From assembly GCA_963666485.2 (NCBI GenBank), contig CAXXUO010000007.1, positions 1-10,595 on the forward strand: a DNA stretch of 10,595 bases, given 5' to 3'. Below, piece by piece: positions 1,674-10,019 of this stretch; positions within the stretch are counted from its first letter, which is position 1; each line of letters begins with the position of its first letter. This DNA comes from Syntrophorhabdaceae bacterium (GTDB lineage: Bacteria > Desulfobacterota > Syntrophorhabdia > Syntrophorhabdales > Syntrophorhabdaceae). Both the position numbers and the translations under genes were made by a program. Under the pieces are notes generated by a model. It was given only the letters and a program-made list of their open reading frames with translations. It did not search any database and had not been told where the DNA came from.

Positions 1674-1703
1674 TTGACTTGGAAATTTGTTTGGGTATAC
1701 AAT
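1674..1703 (+). promoter_or_regulatory. Sigma70-type promoter of the trp leader/trpB2
   Basis: TTGACT (1674-1679), 18 nt, TACAAT (1698-1703). The expected start about 7 nt downstream coincides with the A of the leader ATG at 1710. Confidence 0.7.
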
Positions 1704-1709
1704 ATCACT

Positions 1710-1757
1710 ATGATGAACGTGCAAATCAATAATTGGTGGTGGTGGCGGAAATACTAG
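1710..1757 (+). CDS. trpL: Trp attenuator leader peptide MMNVQINNWWWWRKY
   Basis: ATG ATG AAC GTG CAA ATC AAT AAT TGG TGG TGG TGG CGG AAA TAC TAG. Four consecutive Trp codons (1734-1745) lie directly upstream of alternative hairpins and a tryptophan synthase beta gene. No SD precedes it. Confidence 0.92.
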   Translation: MMNVQINNWWWWRKY

Positions 1758-1797
1758 GTGTGAGACCGTAATTTCCGGCCATGGGCGGTTTCACACC
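1746..1797 (+). promoter_or_regulatory. Attenuator: pause (anti-antiterminator) hairpin and antiterminator
   Basis: Pause hairpin: CGGAAATAC..GGT-gtgag-ACC-GTA-ATTTCCG (1746-1777). Antiterminator: GGTGTGAGACCG (1757-1768) pairs with CGGTTTCACACC (1786-1797), 12 bp with one G-U, mutually exclusive with terminator 1. Confidence 0.88.
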
Positions 1798-1818
1798 GTC
1801 CATGGCCGTTTTTGTTTT
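1776..1818 (+). terminator. Attenuator terminator 1
   Basis: 14-bp stem CGGCCATGGGCGGT (1776-1789) / ACCGTCCATGGCCG (1795-1808) with one G-U, loop TTCAC, then TTTTTGTTTT. Confidence 0.92.
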
Positions 1819-1821
1819 AGA

Positions 1822-1856
1822 AGGCCATGGGTCATTGGGACTCCTGGCCTTTTTTT
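1822..1856 (+). terminator. Second tandem leader terminator
   Basis: AGGCCA-T-GGGTC, loop ATTGG, GACTC-C-TGGCCT (11 bp, one G-U, one U/C mismatch). A run of 7 T at 1850-1856 follows, just ahead of the trpB2 SD. Confidence 0.75.
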
Positions 1857-1877
1857 ATTACGCATAAGGAGGATACG

Positions 1878-3230
1878 ATGGAAAAGAAGATATTTTTGAG
1901 TGACAGTGACATGCCGAAGGCATGGTACAACATACAGGCTGACCTGACGACGCCCCTGCCACCACCTCTTAACCCCGAGACAGGCGATCCTGTAACGCCG
2001 GACATGCTCGAGGCGATTTTTCCCATGAACCTTATCGAGCAGGAGGTCAGCACGGAGAGGTTTATCACGATACCCGACGAGGTTATGGAGCGCCTCCTTA
2101 TGTGGCGGCCCACGCCGTTATGTCGGGCCACGGCCCTCGAGAAATTTCTCGGTACCCCGGCCCACATTTACTACAAGAACGAAAGCGTGAGCCCCCCGGG
2201 CAGCCATAAGCCGAACACGGCTATTGCGCAGGTCTATTACAATAAAATGGCGGGGGTAAAAAGACTCACAACGGAAACAGGCGCCGGGCAATGGGGGAGT
2301 GCCCTGTCATTTGCGTGCAACCAGTTCGGGATGGAACTCAAGGTGTACATGGTCAGGGTGAGCTTCAACCAGAAGCCGTACAGGCGCATCATGATGGAAA
2401 CGTGGGGCGGGAAATGCGTGCCGAGCCCGAGTTCCGATACCGCTGCCGGCAGAAAATTCCTCGAAGGCAACCCGGACCACCCGGGCAGCCTCGGCATGGC
2501 GATATCGGAAGCGATCGAAGACGCGGTCACGTCACAAAACACAAAATACTCTCTCGGCTCCGTCCTCAACCATGTCCTCCTGCACCAGTCGGTCATCGGG
2601 CTCGAGGCACAGAAACAGCTTGCGTCCGTCGGGAAATACCCCGATGTCGTGATAGGGTGCGCAGGGGGCGGCAGCAATTTTGCCGGCATCTCTTTCCCCT
2701 TCCTCCGCGACAAGATCAACGGCAAAGAGGTTCGCGTGGTCGCGTCCGAGCCCACGTCGTGCCCGTCCCTCACGAAAGGGCGCTACGTCTATGACTTTGG
2801 CGATACGGCCGGCATGACGCCGCTCCTTCCCATGTATTCCGTGGGCCACGGTTTCGTTCCCGCCCCGATCCACGCAGGCGGCCTGCGTTATCACGGGATG
2901 GCCCCGCTCGTCAGCAGGGTCTTTGCGGACGGGCTTATCGAGGCGACATCGTACAATCAGATCGAGACGTTCTCCGCCGGCCTCATTTTCGCGAAAACGG
3001 AAGGTTTTATCCCGGCCCCCGAGACGAACCACGCCATCGCCTGCGCCATCGATGAGGCCAGGAAGGCAAAGGAGGAGGGCAGGGAAAAGGTCATTCTCTT
3101 CAATTTCTCCGGCCAGGGAACAATAGACCTGCCGTCATACGACGCGTTCATGTCCGGCAGCCTGCAGGACTATTGCATGCCTGAGAGCGAGATAGGGGAG
3201 TTGTTGAGGGAATTGAGGAAGATCGGCTGA
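1878..3230 (+). CDS. trpB2: TrpB2-type tryptophan synthase beta chain (stand-alone PLP enzyme), 450 aa
   Basis: SD AAGGAGG (1866-1872) places the start at ATG 1878 rather than 1827. Motifs: [24 protein letters not shown] (PLP lysine), [49 protein letters not shown]. No trpA is adjacent. Confidence 0.96.
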
Positions 3231-3234
3231 AGGC

Positions 3235-3530
3235 AGGCGATAGGTAATGGGCAATAGGCGATAGGCAAACGAGAAGCCCATGAGAAAAACGATTAGGGAG
3301 ATTAAGAAATGATACCATCGATTATTTTGGAAGGAAGATTAATGATTTCACGGGAGATTGATTGTTGTGACGATTATTTTCCTGTTTTCGGGAATTTAGA
3401 CAATAAGGATGAATTGCAGGATGATACAGGTCTGATCGTCGGTTACCAGGCCTTGTTAACCCTGTAAAAATGGGTCCAAGGATATGGGCCTTTGATTTTC
3501 CCATCGCCCATCGCCCATCGCCCATCGCCG
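3235..3530. repeat. Heptamer tandem-repeat arms in inverted orientation flanking a ~226-bp AT-rich spacer
   Basis: Left arm 3235-3269: AGGCGAT AGGTAAT GGGCAAT AGGCGAT AGGCAAA. Right arm 3496-3530: TTTTCCC ATCGCCC ATCGCCC ATCGCCC ATCGCCG. The reverse complement of ATCGCCC is GGGCGAT. Confidence 0.85.
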
Positions 3531-3777: not shown

Positions 3778-4881
3778 ATGCTGCTTTCCGACAGGGTGAC
3801 ACAGGTAAGACCGTCAGGCGTGCGAAAGATCTTCGACCTGGCGCAGAAAGTAAAGAACCCGATCAACCTCAGCATTGGGGAACCTGATTTCGACATACCG
3901 GAAGCAGTCAAGAACGAAGGGATATCCTGGATCCAAAAAGGGTTCAACAAGTATACCCCGTCGGGAGGCATACCCGAACTCAGGGAAAAGGTCTTGCTTC
4001 AACTCAAGGCGAAAGGCATCATCTGCGATGACGTGATAATTACCGCGGGTGTGACGGGCGGCCTCTTGCTCGCCCTCATGACGACACTCAACCCCGGGCA
4101 GGAGGTCGTGATCCCGGACCCCTACTTTGTTCTGTACGAATACCAGGTGGCCCTCCTGGGGGGACGGTCCGTCTTTTTCAACACGTATCCGGATTTTACC
4201 CTGCGGGAAGAAGAATTGCGCAAGGCGATAACGGACAGGACGCGGATAATCCTCATCAACAGCCCGAACAACCCGACAGGCATGGTCAATTCCCGTGAAG
4301 AACTCGAAATGGTCGCACGCGTGGCGCGGGAAAAAGACCTCATCGTATTCTCCGACGACATATACGACCGCTTTATCTTCGACGAGGATGGGGCGCAGAA
4401 ACCTTACCTGGGCCAGATCTATGAAAAAACACTCACGTTCGGCGGTTTTTCCAAGACCTGGGGGATGACCGGCTGGCGTTTAGGCTACGTCGCCGGGCCG
4501 AGCGAGGTCATTCAGTGCATGATCACCATGCAGCAGTATGCGTTCAGCAGCGTCACATCTTTTGCCCAGAAGGCGGCCCTCGTGGCCCTCGATGACACCA
4601 TGGACCCCATGATCGATGGGTACCGGAAAAAGCGCGACCTTATTTACGAAGGGATAAAGGACAAGTACAATGTGGTGAAGCCGAAGGGCGCGTTCTTCAT
4701 TTTTCCCGAGGTACCGGGCGGGGAAGACAGCATGGCCTTCGTGGAGCGGGCATTGGAAAACAATCTTTTCATAATACCGGGAAGCGTCTTTTCGTCGCGA
4801 AGCAGTCATGTTCGCATCTCTTTCGCGGCCACCGAGGAGACCCTGCTCAAGGGGATCGATGTCTTAAGGAAACTGGTCTAA
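3778..4881 (+). CDS. PLP-dependent aminotransferase class I/II (aspartate/aromatic aminotransferase-like), 367 aa
   Basis: Motifs NLSIGEPDF, YTPSGGIPELRE, INSPNNPTG, SDDIY, FSKTWGMTGWRLGY (PLP lysine), PKGAFF, VRISFA. Confidence 0.95.
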   Translation: MLLSDRVTQVRPSGVRKIFDLAQKVKNPINLSIGEPDFDIPEAVKNEGISWIQKGFNKYTPSGGIPELREKVLLQLKAKGIICDDVIITAGVTGGLLLALMTTLNPGQEVVIPDPYFVLYEYQVALLGGRSVFFNTYPDFTLREEELRKAITDRTRIILINSPNNPTGMVNSREELEMVARVAREKDLIVFSDDIYDRFIFDEDGAQKPYLGQIYEKTLTFGGFSKTWGMTGWRLGYVAGPSEVIQCMITMQQYAFSSVTSFAQKAALVALDDTMDPMIDGYRKKRDLIYEGIKDKYNVVKPKGAFFIFPEVPGGEDSMAFVERALENNLFIIPGSVFSSRSSHVRISFAATEETLLKGIDVLRKLV

Positions 4882-4900
4882 ACTCAAGGAGTATACGCGG

Positions 4901-6119
4901 ATGCATGAAAATATCATCAGGCTGTTGATAGGGAACAGTGTTCGGCAGCTCTACGTGACAAGCCGTTCGACGCTCGCCGCGGTTCGCCGGTTATCTCCTC
5001 CGTATCCCCTTCATTGCGATGTCTCCACAAATGAAAAGATCGCATACGAGCTGGCGCTTGCCGGGGCGTATGCGGGCAAGAGAACGGCGTGTATCGTTTC
5101 GACGGAGGGCCTCTACGATGCCCTCGACCCCGTGATGAGCTCCGCGTACACAGGGGTCGCCGCTTCCTTCGTGGTCATAGCCGTCCAGGAGAATGTGGAA
5201 GAGATCACCCCCGCTCGGGTTTTTCTCGAAGCTCCCCGTCATTGTCACGGAAACGGACGAAGAATTGGAAAAGGCCGTTGCATATGCCTTCTCGATATCG
5301 GAAGAGTACAGGATCCCCGTTATCGTACAGGCATTTCCCGGCGGGTACGGACAGGGCGCCGACGCTGCTTCTCCGGGCCGGCCCGCCGAACTCGAAAACG
5401 CGTTCTTGAAAAAGGAACCGGGCCGATGGGCCGCAACACCCAAATTCAGGTACCAGCTTCACGGGGAATTGAACGACAAGATCCGAAGGATACGCGATGC
5501 CTTCGAGACATACGAAGGCAATATTGCTGAATACAAGGGAAAGACAGGACTCATCACCGACAGGTTCTCGCGCCTGGAATTCTACGACGAGGACGCCAGC
5601 ATCCTTCGTCTCGCCACGGTTTTCCCGCTGCCCGAGAAGCTCGTGAGGAATTTTATCGATGCGATGGATGAAGTCCTTGTCGTGGAAAATTACCCGGCGA
5701 TAGAGCTCCAGATACCGGACCGGGCAAAGGTGGGGAGCGGTTTTGTCGACAGGGGAAGGGGAAGGCCTCAGTTTGAGGAGAAGATACAGGGATTTACCGT
5801 CATACGGGACCGGCTGGGCCCGGCGTCTTCGATCAACATGGCGCACGGGGTCAAGAAACTGCATCCCGACAGGAACATCATGGCCGTCACATTCGAGGAC
5901 CATTTCTTCCATTCCGGAATGCCGGCCTACATCAACAGCCTGTACAATGATTCGGCAAGCGTCCTTCTCATCATGGTGAGCGAGTTTGCCGACGAATTGA
6001 AGAGGGTGTTTGAAAGCTATGGCGTGAAAAATGTCTTCGACATCAACGAGATAACCGAGCTTGCCCGGTTCAAGGATACGCAGGAACCCGTCGTCGCTCT
6101 CTACAGGGGTATGATATGA
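4901..6119 (+). CDS. Degenerate IorA-like (indolepyruvate:ferredoxin oxidoreductase alpha) paralog, about 405 aa after correcting one +1 frameshift
   Basis: SD AAGGAG precedes ATG 4901. The first frame has STNEKIAYELALAG and DPVMSSAYTGV. Removing one C from the C5 run at 5208-5212 joins it to the second frame (..EEITPLGFFSKLPV.., RWAATPKFR, FEDHFFHSGMPA). It lacks YPGTPS, CPGCP, GDIGCY, GDST and the ferredoxin domain. The stop overlaps the iorB start (ATGA). Confidence 0.75.
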
Positions 6120-6688
6120 AACGCGAGATAGTCTGTGCCGGGATCGGGGGAAGAGGTGTCCTTCTTGCTTCGACCATATTAATAGAGGCGGCGATACAAA
6201 GCGGCATGAAAGCCATGGCATCCGACGAATACGGGATGTCCCAGAGGGGCGGGTCGGTCATATCGCTTGTCAAGGTCGGCGATTTTGCGAGCCCGTTCAT
6301 TGGCAGGGAGAATGGTGACATACTTCTTGCATTCGAGGAAAGCGAGTTCTATAAAACTCTTTTCTTTCTCAAGAAGGGCGGGCTTGCCCTCATCAACACG
6401 CCCGCCGCGGGGCTCGGCGCATCTGTTGAGGCCGTGCTGAAAGAAAGGCAGATATCATACCGCCTGATCGACGCCGACGGCATCGCCCGGGATGAAGGGA
6501 TGTTCCAGTCGGCAAATATGGCGCTTCTCGGGGCGTTCGCTTCTTTTGGGATCGAGCCCTTTACGCGGAATATTCTCGAAACAACCATCCGTTCCCGTGT
6601 TCCCGAAAAGTTCATGGCAAAGAATCTCGCTGTTTTTGAAAAGGGATATGAGGCGGCAAAAAGGCGAACAGTGAACGGTAAAAAGTAG
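6116..6688 (+). CDS. iorB: Indolepyruvate oxidoreductase beta subunit (2-oxoacid:acceptor oxidoreductase gamma-like), 190 aa
   Basis: Motifs GIGGRGVLLAS, EYGMSQRGGSV, DILLAFE, ANMALLGA, NLAVFEKGYE. It lies between two iorA-like genes. Confidence 0.9.
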   Translation: MKREIVCAGIGGRGVLLASTILIEAAIQSGMKAMASDEYGMSQRGGSVISLVKVGDFASPFIGRENGDILLAFEESEFYKTLFFLKKGGLALINTPAAGLGASVEAVLKERQISYRLIDADGIARDEGMFQSANMALLGAFASFGIEPFTRNILETTIRSRVPEKFMAKNLAVFEKGYEAAKRRTVNGKK

Positions 6689-6732
6689 GGAAGGGGCAAG
6701 GGTTATATGCAGAATAATCAACTACCACCTGC

Positions 6733-6852
6733 CGTCATCCCGGTGCTTGACACCGGGATCCAGTGTCTTTTCTTTGCTTCTTTGCCTCGGTTTCTACACA
6801 TTACGAGAAAGATGGAAAACCTTGGATCCCGGTGTCAAGCACCGGGATGACG
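6733..6852. repeat. CGTC-tagged REP doublet (perfect 30-bp inverted pair, REPIN-like)
   Basis: CGTCATCCCGGTGCTTGACACCGGGATCCA (6733-6762) and its exact reverse complement at 6823-6852, with a 60-bp spacer. Each unit is itself a hairpin (ATCCCGGTG-cttga-CACCGGGAT). Confidence 0.92.
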
Positions 6853-6894
6853 ATATCTGGTTAGGATTTGGATGTGGTAATGGTTTTATGCCAT

Positions 6895-6900
6895 TATAAT
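6895..6900 (+). promoter_or_regulatory. Candidate -10 element upstream of iorA
   Basis: Perfect TATAAT about 55 nt before the GTG start. No convincing -35 at canonical spacing. Confidence 0.3.
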
Positions 6901-6954
6901 CAGTGAGGGGTAAGACGTAATAAGTTCAGCCCCAGGGTTAATGGAGGTCTTGAA

Positions 6955-8733
6955 GTGGATATAAGGCAGGAAGTTGTCATAGGAAACCAGGCGATCGCAC
7001 GGGGCCTTGTCGAGGCGGGGCTCGAGATCGCTGCTGCATATCCCGGGACCCCGAGTTCCGAGATCCTCCCCGGTGTCGTTTATTTCAAGAACCGGGAAGG
7101 GTTGGCCATACATACCGAATGGTCGTCGAACGAACTGTGCGCGTTCGAGGTCGCCTTCGGGGCAGCGGCATACGGGGGAGTGCGCGCCGCGTGCTTCATG
7201 AAGCAGGTCGGTCTCAACGTTGCGTTCCCGGCACTGCTCAAGGCACGCGAAAAAGTTCTCGAGGGCGGACTGGTCATAGTCTCCTGTGACGATCCGGGCC
7301 CGCAGTCTTCCCAGACGGAGCAGGACACCCGTCTTCTCGCCGCTCTCTATGGCATCCCTGTTTTCGACCCGGCATCCCCCGGGGAAGCCGCCGATGTCGC
7401 GTATTATGCGCTCGACTGGTCCTTTAAAAATAAAGTCCCCGTCATTATTCGTTCGACCCACAGGGTGAGCCATGCCCGTCAATCAATTGACCTCTATAAA
7501 CCCGGTACGCGTGACGTCACACTGCGAGAGGGTGTCTGTGCAGGGGCGGGTCAAAAACTCGGGATCGTCGCATCGGGCATGAGTTATTCGCTCGTCAGCG
7601 ATGTTATCGAAGAACTGGGAGCGGGGAAAGATGTATCTGTTTACAAGGTCCTCAGGGTATACCCCCAGTCCGAAGATCTGAGCGATTTCGTCGTGTCCAT
7701 GGACGAGGTCCTCGTCATCGAAGAGACGGACATGGTCATCGAATCCCTCCTCGGGATGCGGCAGAAAGTGATGGGCAGGGCGGACGGCACGGTACCGTCG
7801 TCCGGTGAGATAACCTATGATATCGTGCGCGACATACTCTCCGGGATCTTACGGGAGATCGGCACGGTAAAGACCTTCGTTCCCGACACGGGCATCGAGG
7901 CGGCCCTTTCCGATATCGCCATCACACCGAGGCCGCCGAAGCTGTGTCCCGGGTGTCCCCATCGGGCATCGTTTTTCGCCATGCAGCATATCTGGCCGAA
8001 CGCGATCTACCCGGGGGACATCGGGTGCTACACCCTCGGGATCTCGCAGGGAGCTGTGGATACGTGCCTCGACATGGGGGCGGGTGTCACACTTGCCGAG
8101 GGATTTTACGACGCATTTTACCAGGACGGTAAACTCGTTCCCATCCTTGCTTCTGTCGGGGATTCGACATTCCTCCATGCCTGCCTTGCGCCGCTTTACG
8201 ACGCCGTAAAGAACCATAAGAGATTTATTCTTGTGCTCATGGACAACTCCACGACCGCCATGACGGGTATGCAGCCGACACCGCAGACGGGGGTTACGGT
8301 TGACGGCATTGCGACCCGTAGCGTCGCTATTGAAGATATCGTCAAGGGTCTTGGCGTGAAGTACTTGAAGATCGTCGATCCATACGATGTTTCCCTGACC
8401 ATAGGAACACTGAAAGATGCCTTCACATACCTGCAGGGCGACGATATGCTTCCGGCCGTTGTTATAACAAGGCGGGAGTGCCTTTTGCTGCAAAAGGGAA
8501 AGGCAAAGGATGCCGCGTACCCGGTCAGGCTCGAAGAAGGCTGCATCGGGTGCAAGAGCTGTTTCAGTACGTTCGACTGCCCGGCCATTTCCTTCGATGC
8601 GGATGCGAAAAAGATCAGGATCGATGACAGCATCTGCACGAACTGCGGGATATGCTATTTCGCATGTCCGGTTCAGCCCGAAGGCAAGGACCTGAAGAAA
8701 TTTAAAGAGTCCGGCAAAGCACAGTCAAAATAA
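6955..8733 (+). CDS. iorA: Indolepyruvate:ferredoxin oxidoreductase alpha subunit (TPP- and 4Fe-4S-binding), 592 aa
   Basis: SD GGAGG (6943-6947) and GTG start. Motifs GNQAIARG, AYPGTPSSEI, MKQVGLNVA, DDPGPQSSQTEQD, RPPKLCPGCPHR, GDIGCY, GDSTFLHA..DNSTTAMTG (TPP), and C-terminal CIGCKSC..CP / CTNCGICYFACP ferredoxin motifs. Confidence 0.94.
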   Translation: MDIRQEVVIGNQAIARGLVEAGLEIAAAYPGTPSSEILPGVVYFKNREGLAIHTEWSSNELCAFEVAFGAAAYGGVRAACFMKQVGLNVAFPALLKAREKVLEGGLVIVSCDDPGPQSSQTEQDTRLLAALYGIPVFDPASPGEAADVAYYALDWSFKNKVPVIIRSTHRVSHARQSIDLYKPGTRDVTLREGVCAGAGQKLGIVASGMSYSLVSDVIEELGAGKDVSVYKVLRVYPQSEDLSDFVVSMDEVLVIEETDMVIESLLGMRQKVMGRADGTVPSSGEITYDIVRDILSGILREIGTVKTFVPDTGIEAALSDIAITPRPPKLCPGCPHRASFFAMQHIWPNAIYPGDIGCYTLGISQGAVDTCLDMGAGVTLAEGFYDAFYQDGKLVPILASVGDSTFLHACLAPLYDAVKNHKRFILVLMDNSTTAMTGMQPTPQTGVTVDGIATRSVAIEDIVKGLGVKYLKIVDPYDVSLTIGTLKDAFTYLQGDDMLPAVVITRRECLLLQKGKAKDAAYPVRLEEGCIGCKSCFSTFDCPAISFDADAKKIRIDDSICTNCGICYFACPVQPEGKDLKKFKESGKAQSK

Positions 8734-9929: not shown

Positions 9930-10019
9930 GGAGAGATGTCCGAGCGGCTGAAGGAGCACGATTGGAAATCGTGTGTGCGTTAACGCGTACCGAGGGTTCA
10001 AATCCCTCTCTCTCCGCCA
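9930..10019 (+). tRNA. tRNA-Ser(GGA)
   Basis: Acceptor stem GGAGAGA/TCTCTCC, discriminator G and encoded CCA. Anticodon arm CACGA-TTGGAAA-TCGTG (GGA at 9964-9966), long variable arm, T arm GAGGG-TTCAAAT-CCCTC. Length 90 nt. Confidence 0.98.

Follow-up and report, generated by a model that had tools for sequence, protein, structure and literature searches.

A conserved tryptophan leader ahead of trpB2 in a Syntrophorhabdaceae bacterium, with two predicted terminators in series that are likely coupled by a relay helix

The closest described relative of the arrangement considered here is the enterobacterial his attenuator, in which, as the cited accounts present it, stem-loops AB, CD and EF, the last followed by uridines, are exclusive with BC and DE (PMC10989985, PMC10065794). 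Elf and Ehrenberg are cited for the proposal that his, an operon under attenuation alone, keeps basal read-through to a minimum by means of its extra hairpin (PMC1183508). Two adjacent Rho-independent terminators have been described in the ermK leader (PMC4335068, citing Kwak 1991), while the descriptions cited for the Staphylococcus aureus ilv and Escherichia coli pheL leaders give one terminator each (PMC5794164, PMC3082878).

The DNA analysed here (the window) comprises 10,595 nucleotides, positions 1 to 10,595 of contig CAXXUO010000007.1 in the Syntrophorhabdaceae bacterium assembly GCA_963666485.2. Ahead of its trpB2 gene it carries a leader that, with its two hairpins T1 and T2, is a real and conserved element, his-attenuator-like in its working, with a probably leaderless sensor and a probable second termination site (Table 1). 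The reading preferred here, and held to be reasonably likely, is that this is a Trp leader-peptide attenuator of trpB2 in which a conserved relay helix would let one stalled ribosome disable two predicted terminators in series. The model is built on sequence, conservation, covariation and computed folds, from which leader translation, the order of folding and termination at each site are inferred.

A first-pass annotation of the sequence had proposed two terminators with a shared 5'-arm sequence (1776-1818 and 1822-1856), an antiterminator joining 1757-1768 to 1786-1797, and a further helix, adjoining it, between 1798-1807 and 1823-1832. Its coordinates are right. GGCCATGGG is present in both 5' arms (1777-1785 and 1823-1831), and these are the window's only two matches, against 0.14 expected; at least two were seen in 3 of 200 shuffles. 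The antiterminator has 12 bp (-22.2 kcal/mol), and the relay helix agrees base for base, with 8 Watson-Crick and 2 G-U pairs and its first base directly after the antiterminator. The fold of 1757-1860 has a z of -6.5, and none of 200 shuffles folded as well. A consensus terminator scan of the window flagged T1 and missed T2, probably because of the mismatch in the T2 stem.

Searching 1700-1880 against Rfam at E values up to 5 gave no match, the Trp_leader and His_leader covariance models included. As for a T-box or riboswitch, there were no Rfam aptamer or T-box matches upstream of the terminator, and the whole leader, counted from its predicted start, is only about 170 nt long and begins with the ORF. 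Contigs from runs X1 and X2 (one sample, possibly the window's own source) are identical to the window over 1600-2385; these contigs and the homologous upstream DNA of other genomes led to the rejection of an assembly artefact of the repeated arms.

Table 1. Features of the trpB2 leader, in window coordinates
Feature	Position	Strand	Remarks
sigma70-type promoter	1674..1703	+	TTGACT, 18 nt, TACAAT; predicted start about 1710
Leader ORF MMNVQINNWWWWRKY*	1710..1757	+	Likely leaderless: ATG at predicted transcription start, no Shine-Dalgarno
Four tandem UGG sensor codons	1734..1745	+	
Predicted protector/pause hairpin P	1743..1781	+	1743-1752 with 1771-1781; encloses the antiterminator 5' strand (segment A); -14.6 kcal/mol for 1734-1781
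Segment A, antiterminator 5' strand	1757..1768	+	
Hairpin T1 (B:C)	1776..1808	+	14-bp stem, then TTTTTGTTTT; -27.9 kcal/mol; 1786-1797 doubles as antiterminator 3' strand
Segment C	1798..1807	+	T1 3' arm and relay helix 5' strand
U tract 1, TTTTTGTTTT	1809..1818	+	Predicted first termination site
Hairpin T2 (D:E)	1822..1850	+	One U-C mismatch, then T7; -18.7 kcal/mol; segment D (1823-1832) doubles as relay helix 3' strand
U tract 2 (T7)	1850..1856	+	Predicted second termination site
Shine-Dalgarno AAGGAGG of trpB2	1866..1872	+	Outside T1 and T2; read from sequence
trpB2, TrpB-like PLP enzyme	1878..3230	+	TIGR01415 and PRK12391 above cut-off

The four UGG codons, already taken for a Trp sensor in the first-pass annotation, are supported by conservation: WWWW stands ahead of trpB2, a Trp-run leader is found in 59 of the 64 distinct trpB2 elements, and in other elements runs of Phe, Tyr or Leu codons precede aromatic and leuA genes. 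TTGAC occurs upstream in all 59 trpB2 Trp leaders. In 58 of these the first in-frame ATG lies 34-39 nt past TTGAC, and an SD-like word occurs in 4 of the 58, so the leader ORF is probably translated from a leaderless message. The distance from the last Trp codon to the start of segment A is 11-17 nt in every one of 78 elements (14 nt in 49), whether the stop codon falls before or inside segment A. Set against the length of a ribosome footprint, this spacing fits, as a matter of geometry alone, a stalled ribosome that would free A and a terminating one that would mask it.

Beyond the first-pass annotation lie the leaderless start, hairpin P, two more elements in the same genome and a spread across the phylum. 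Hairpin P encloses segment A without pairing with it, and loses to the antiterminator at 1797 nt. Over 67 distinct pairs its pairing averages -10.0 kcal/mol for cognate and -7.9 kcal/mol for non-cognate combinations, and it is weak in family f3; it may serve as a pause or a protector, as a possible counterpart of AB in his.

How might such a leader work? With Trp scarce, a ribosome starting at the 5' end would stall on the UGG codons and leave segment A free to pair with the loop and inner arm of a T1 that has yet to close. The freed T1 3' arm would then capture the 5' arm of T2, so that neither terminator would form, and the antiterminator would be locked against later invasion by the T1 3' arm, now held in the relay. 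With Trp plentiful, a ribosome at the stop codon (1755-1757) would mask A, and T1 would form and terminate transcription near 1815. T2 would also form, because T1 holds segment C, and would stop polymerases that had passed T1 or for which T1 had closed late. In a lineage that yielded no Trp repressor, a second checkpoint of this kind would lower basal read-through, as has been suggested for the extra his hairpin.

Much depends on whether the relay helix is a functional structure or a by-product, and this was judged from homologs. Upstream DNA was taken from 89 trpB2 matches in 101 genomes: 2 had no upstream DNA, 22 had no recognisable T1, and the element is present upstream of 65 (64 distinct); the 59 Trp leaders span four families. 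A pattern scan gave 62 matches, of which L109 and L123, chance-like and with no second hairpin or U tract, were dropped before counting. The resulting 87 distinct two-hairpin elements consist of 60 from the trpB2 set, not chosen by pattern, and 27 from the scan, whose expression fixed two letters of segment D. Because the arms are repeats, complementarity of C and D could be a by-product; the pairing B:E (T1 5' arm with T2 3' arm), having the same repeat origin and no role in the model, serves as the control.

The 8-bp core of C:D is mismatched in 1 of the 87 elements, against 19 for T1 (8 if the terminal pair is left out) and 21 for T2, and wherever T1 is mismatched internally (8 cases) or T2 is mismatched (21 cases), the relay pair is kept. 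Within the 60 trpB2-set elements the mismatches are 1 for the relay, 12 for T1, 15 for T2 and 37 for B:E. In alignment A1, which holds 73 of the 87 elements, pairing is 99.5% for the relay, 97.5% for the antiterminator, 97.9% for T1, 96.3% for T2 and 83% for B:E. The contrast is weaker in the 20 parsed loci of the phylum-level set, with a relay mismatch in 4 and a B:E mismatch in 7.

The first-pass annotation had named covariation of the relay helix in trpB2 leaders as a check, and here it is supported, within limits. Pairing is nearly complete and D8 tracks C3: where the T2 partner is U, and a G-to-A change at D8 would favour T2, D8 is A in none of 37 elements with C at C3 and in 16 of 18 with U (families f1, f3 and f15 and leuA leaders). 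Double changes are few, however: in A1 just 1 of 9 relay pairs is changed on both sides, variation being mostly G-U wobble, as against 8 of 12 pairs in the antiterminator. Fisher and permutation p-values overstate these contrasts, since the sequences are kin and were compared without a tree, and are not taken as probabilities. As judged from the alignments, the relay helix looks selected, and that it is real and under selection is very probable.

A reading at odds with this makes T1 the regulated terminator and T2 a duplicated back-up, unregulated or weak, with the C:D complementarity left over from the duplication. B and D repeat each other directly, the single hairpin of L074 looks as if left by a deletion between them, other single-hairpin leaders occur (L016, L025, L209), and the scarcity of double-sided relay changes points the same way. 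Yet B:E, equally repeat-derived, has decayed (mismatched in 39 of 50 haplotypes) and C:D has not (1 of 50), and it is C, not E, that changes in D follow. With its 7-U tract, T2 would moreover block induction if it were unregulated: with the relay broken in silico, T2 forms with a probability of 0.97 despite the antiterminator. A mere back-up role for T2 is accordingly regarded as very improbable.

Does T1 itself terminate transcription, as the two-terminator reading supposes? The second hairpin, whose absence from relatives would by the first-pass annotation have told against its scheme, is kept in 56 of the 59 trpB2 Trp leaders. At least 6 U in the 8 nt following are found after both hairpins in 49 of the 59, after T1 only in 5 and after T2 only in 5. 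That none has lost both tracts (0 of 59) was discarded as an argument: about 0.4 such cases are expected by chance. Five leaders in which T2 is lost or degraded (L014, L016, L025, L053, L074) keep a U-tailed T1. Among 56 homologs the U frequency at positions 1-4 after T1 is 0.93, 0.91, 0.95 and 0.91, a profile like the one after T2 (6 or more U in 8 in 50 and 54 of the 56, respectively; control linkers have 24-33% U).

Over all 87 two-hairpin elements, at least 6 U of 8 follow T2 in 84 and T1 in 65. The 22 with no U tract after T1, among them the trpB2 leader of Syntrophorhabdus aromaticivorans UI (L114) and 4 of the 5 pattern-found leuA leaders, suggest that some members of the family probably have in T1 no more than a protector hairpin. 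Extended to the window, this gives a his-type alternative with one terminator: T1 would be an extra protector, equivalent to his CD and perhaps a pause; T2 alone would terminate, and the uridines behind T1 would signal a pause or make up the relay hairpin's loop. The greater constancy of the U tract after T2 speaks for it, as do the Leu leaders and the Desulfarculaceae Phe/Tyr leaders that retain the relay but lack a U tract behind T1, the mere 3 U in 8 after T1 in this genome's own Tyr element, and the topology described for the his attenuator (PMC10989985). It has to contend with a T1 that, in the window, passes on every point as a consensus terminator and is the stronger of the two hairpins, with a U profile after T1 that is position-specific, as after T2, and with the five leaders where T1 is the only U-tailed hairpin left. 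For the window this single-terminator alternative is thought unlikely, if far from negligible. The family mixes his-like and double-terminator forms, the window being, to go by its sequence, a double-terminator form; termination at both of its sites is predicted as fairly probable.

Folding calculations bear on the order of events. With A free, the lengthening transcript has the antiterminator as its minimum-energy fold until 1803; T1 takes over from 1806, the antiterminator together with the relay is favoured at 1832-1845, and from 1849 on T1 and T2 prevail. Constrained folding, also named in the first-pass annotation, supports its antiterminator and relay helix: with the antiterminator forced, the relay has a probability of 0.999 at 1849, declining to 0.69 at 1856 once the U tract is included, and with segment A masked T1 and T2 each have a probability of 1.0. 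Conservation and covariation agree with this as regards the antiterminator, and by alignment pairing and computed folds it and the U-tailed terminators are mutually exclusive. Among 75 homologs, T1 formed in 74 and T2 in 73 when A was masked; when the antiterminator was held, the relay formed in 57, and T2 beat it in 17.

All 75 elements have a T1 more stable than the antiterminator, and the full-length global minimum is the terminating fold; read-through therefore has to depend on a kinetic trap, in which A would pair first and be displaced slowly. The barrier to displacement is 24 kcal/mol by a rough direct-path estimate that ignores pseudoknotted intermediates. This thermodynamic disadvantage of the read-through fold lends something to the possibility that the outcome is not mainly intrinsic termination, the hairpins acting as pause sites or through Rho, or T2 controlling translation of trpB2; we also know of no test of intrinsic termination in this lineage. 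The canonical G+C stems and U tracts of both hairpins, and a distance from T2 to the gene of over 100 nt in several homologs, argue the other way, and little weight is given to it. Its translational variant was rejected, the Shine-Dalgarno sequence of trpB2 lying outside both hairpins.

In this 99%-complete genome the searches turned up no TrpA, TrpE N-terminal domain, IGPS or TrpR, and trpB2 as the one TrpB homolog; TrpR was found in none of 101 related genomes. On these results, and in line with background on TrpB2, the gene product is probably a salvage enzyme; attenuation may be the only Trp control of the gene. Named records with the element are mostly Syntrophorhabdus and Syntrophorhabdaceae.

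After trpB2, at 3778-8733, come an aminotransferase and indolepyruvate ferredoxin oxidoreductase (IOR)-like subunits, and in four other loci (L090, L093, L132, L134) a Trp attenuator directly precedes a similar aminotransferase; these neighbours hint at Trp synthesis from indole acids by an aryl-acid route. The first IOR alpha-like gene (4901-6119) is split across two frames, and, as one base at 5208 is missing in the X1 and X2 contigs, the break may be an assembly error. Elsewhere the Trp attenuator stands before genes for TRAP components (DctP, DctQ) or periplasmic binding proteins (L092, L096, L101, L104, L111, L115, L126, L129, L135, L142, L147), which are candidates for uptake of indole or Trp. 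The window also has a long perfect inverted repeat at 6715-6872, between IOR genes, which scores as Rfam WsnRNA46 on both strands and is probably a miniature repeat element. Short CCCATCG-type repeats, common to many other contigs, flank a gap downstream of trpB2 (3228-3265 and 3496-3529). A tRNA-Ser(GGA) lies at 9930-10019, and the minus-strand ORFs beyond it may belong to an integrated element.

Two further elements occur in the same genome, both on the minus strand: a Phe leader, MMRMFSFFFGFFFFRRLHPGLPLC*, before two tandem aminotransferase-like genes (L182, G000:C1:1177438-1177570) and the Tyr leader mentioned above, MLRNDTSIRLTSYYYYYYSPGHSCRSFS*, before an aminotransferase (L183, G000:C6:64149-64290). 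The two leaders themselves are placed at C1:1177438-1177537 and C6:64149-64254. The folds of both pass through an antiterminator-plus-relay state. A covariance model of the element matched 57 of 151 genomes of the phylum at E values up to 0.001. The loci inspected (27 chosen by the model, L156 and L158-L183, and 10 others) have Trp, Phe, Tyr, mixed aromatic, Leu or Ile leaders, followed by genes for DAHP synthase, a DeoC-family aldolase, trpE, trpB2, leuA, aminotransferases and solute-binding proteins. Of 26 phylum-level loci 20 could be parsed, the other 6 staying outside the counts; 19 of the 20 have U tracts after each hairpin, a figure biased upward by the choice of loci with the covariance model, and 16 have an upstream strand complementary to T1 (z < -2).

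Several leaders depart from this plan. Two other conserved trpB2 leader types in family f3 have no Trp run (L059, L066 and L069, a type that retains a T1-like arm; and L057, L060, L061, L065, L070 and L072), and are possibly decayed attenuators or different RNAs. Three trpB2 leaders (L047, L048, L049) have a T2-like hairpin with no T1 and no clear Trp leader nearby. L044 retains the relay and both hairpins and shows a compensatory change in all four arms; a Trp leader and segment A were not found there. Relay-bearing Phe/Tyr leaders in two Desulfarculaceae records (L098, L108) precede a protein of about 500 aa, of unknown function and with a weak GNAT match.

A wider and more tentative idea, short of probable, is that the element is a portable two-checkpoint cassette of the Thermodesulfobacteriota: a leaderless sensor ORF followed by two repeat-armed intrinsic terminators in series, reused for Trp, Phe, Tyr, Leu and Ile genes and tuned by gain or loss of either U tract or by repeat-mediated collapse to one hairpin. 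The state of the ribosome would be read twice by the polymerase, about 40 nt apart, so that leaks would multiply and attenuation alone could give repressor-like tightness.

Such leaders would show how attenuation may reach low basal expression with no repressor, by means of a compact two-stage switch of about 150 nt. They also make the extra-hairpin proposal for his testable on a natural series before the same gene: leaders with both U tracts, with that of T1 or of T2 alone, and with the hairpins collapsed into one. As an uncatalogued RNA family, they mark amino-acid regulons (DAHP synthase, trpE, trpB2, leuA, aminotransferases, transporters) in an anaerobic phylum.

How new is the layout? The first-pass annotation had offered the domino-like double terminator as one it did not know for a trp leader. 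The domino part was overstated: its topology is already known from the chain described for his (PMC10989985), and two terminators in one leader from ermK (PMC4335068). What stands is the U-tailed middle hairpin, of which in amino-acid leaders, as of such leaders in this phylum, no description was found in the literature searched, most subscription papers lying outside it. The comparative attenuator surveys Vitreschak 2004 and Lopatovskaya/Lyubetsky 2010 reportedly covered delta-proteobacteria, and may show such leaders.

Among more distant parallels, the rimP leader of some Gammaproteobacteria is described as having two predicted tandem terminators and an antiterminator; unlike the present element it has, in that account, no leader peptide, its arm motifs are inverse rather than repeated, and control by a protein is proposed (PMC2965389). 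The mycobacterial poly-Cys attenuators share a leaderless short ORF as amino-acid sensor, as far as their description goes (bioRxiv 10.1101/834739), for a different amino acid and in a different phylum. The ermK/ermD attenuator of Bacillus licheniformis, compared by its description only, likewise joins one leader peptide to two adjacent terminators, but senses macrolide-induced stalling rather than amino-acid supply. The E. coli trp leader (trpL; Rfam Trp_leader, RF00513) likewise has UGG codons in tandem towards the end of a short ORF, together with 1:2-like, 2:3 and 3:4 helices and a U-tailed terminator. It has one terminator and is described as co-controlled by TrpR (PMC1183508), whereas the leader here has two extra segments, TrpR was not found, and the target is a stand-alone trpB2 in a genome in which trpA, trpE and IGPS were not found.

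The his leader (hisL) is nearest: on the descriptions cited, it too couples one leader peptide to a chain of exclusive helices, the first antiterminator releasing a strand that keeps the last hairpin from forming, and the equivalent of its DE, a second antiterminator, is formed here by the T1 3' arm and the T2 5' arm. Only EF is described there with uridines, whereas here the middle hairpin is usually U-tailed too (both are in 49 of 59 trpB2 Trp leaders), short repeats (GGCCRYGG) make up the arms, the leader appears to be leaderless, and the amino acid sensed is Trp, Phe, Tyr, Leu or Ile.
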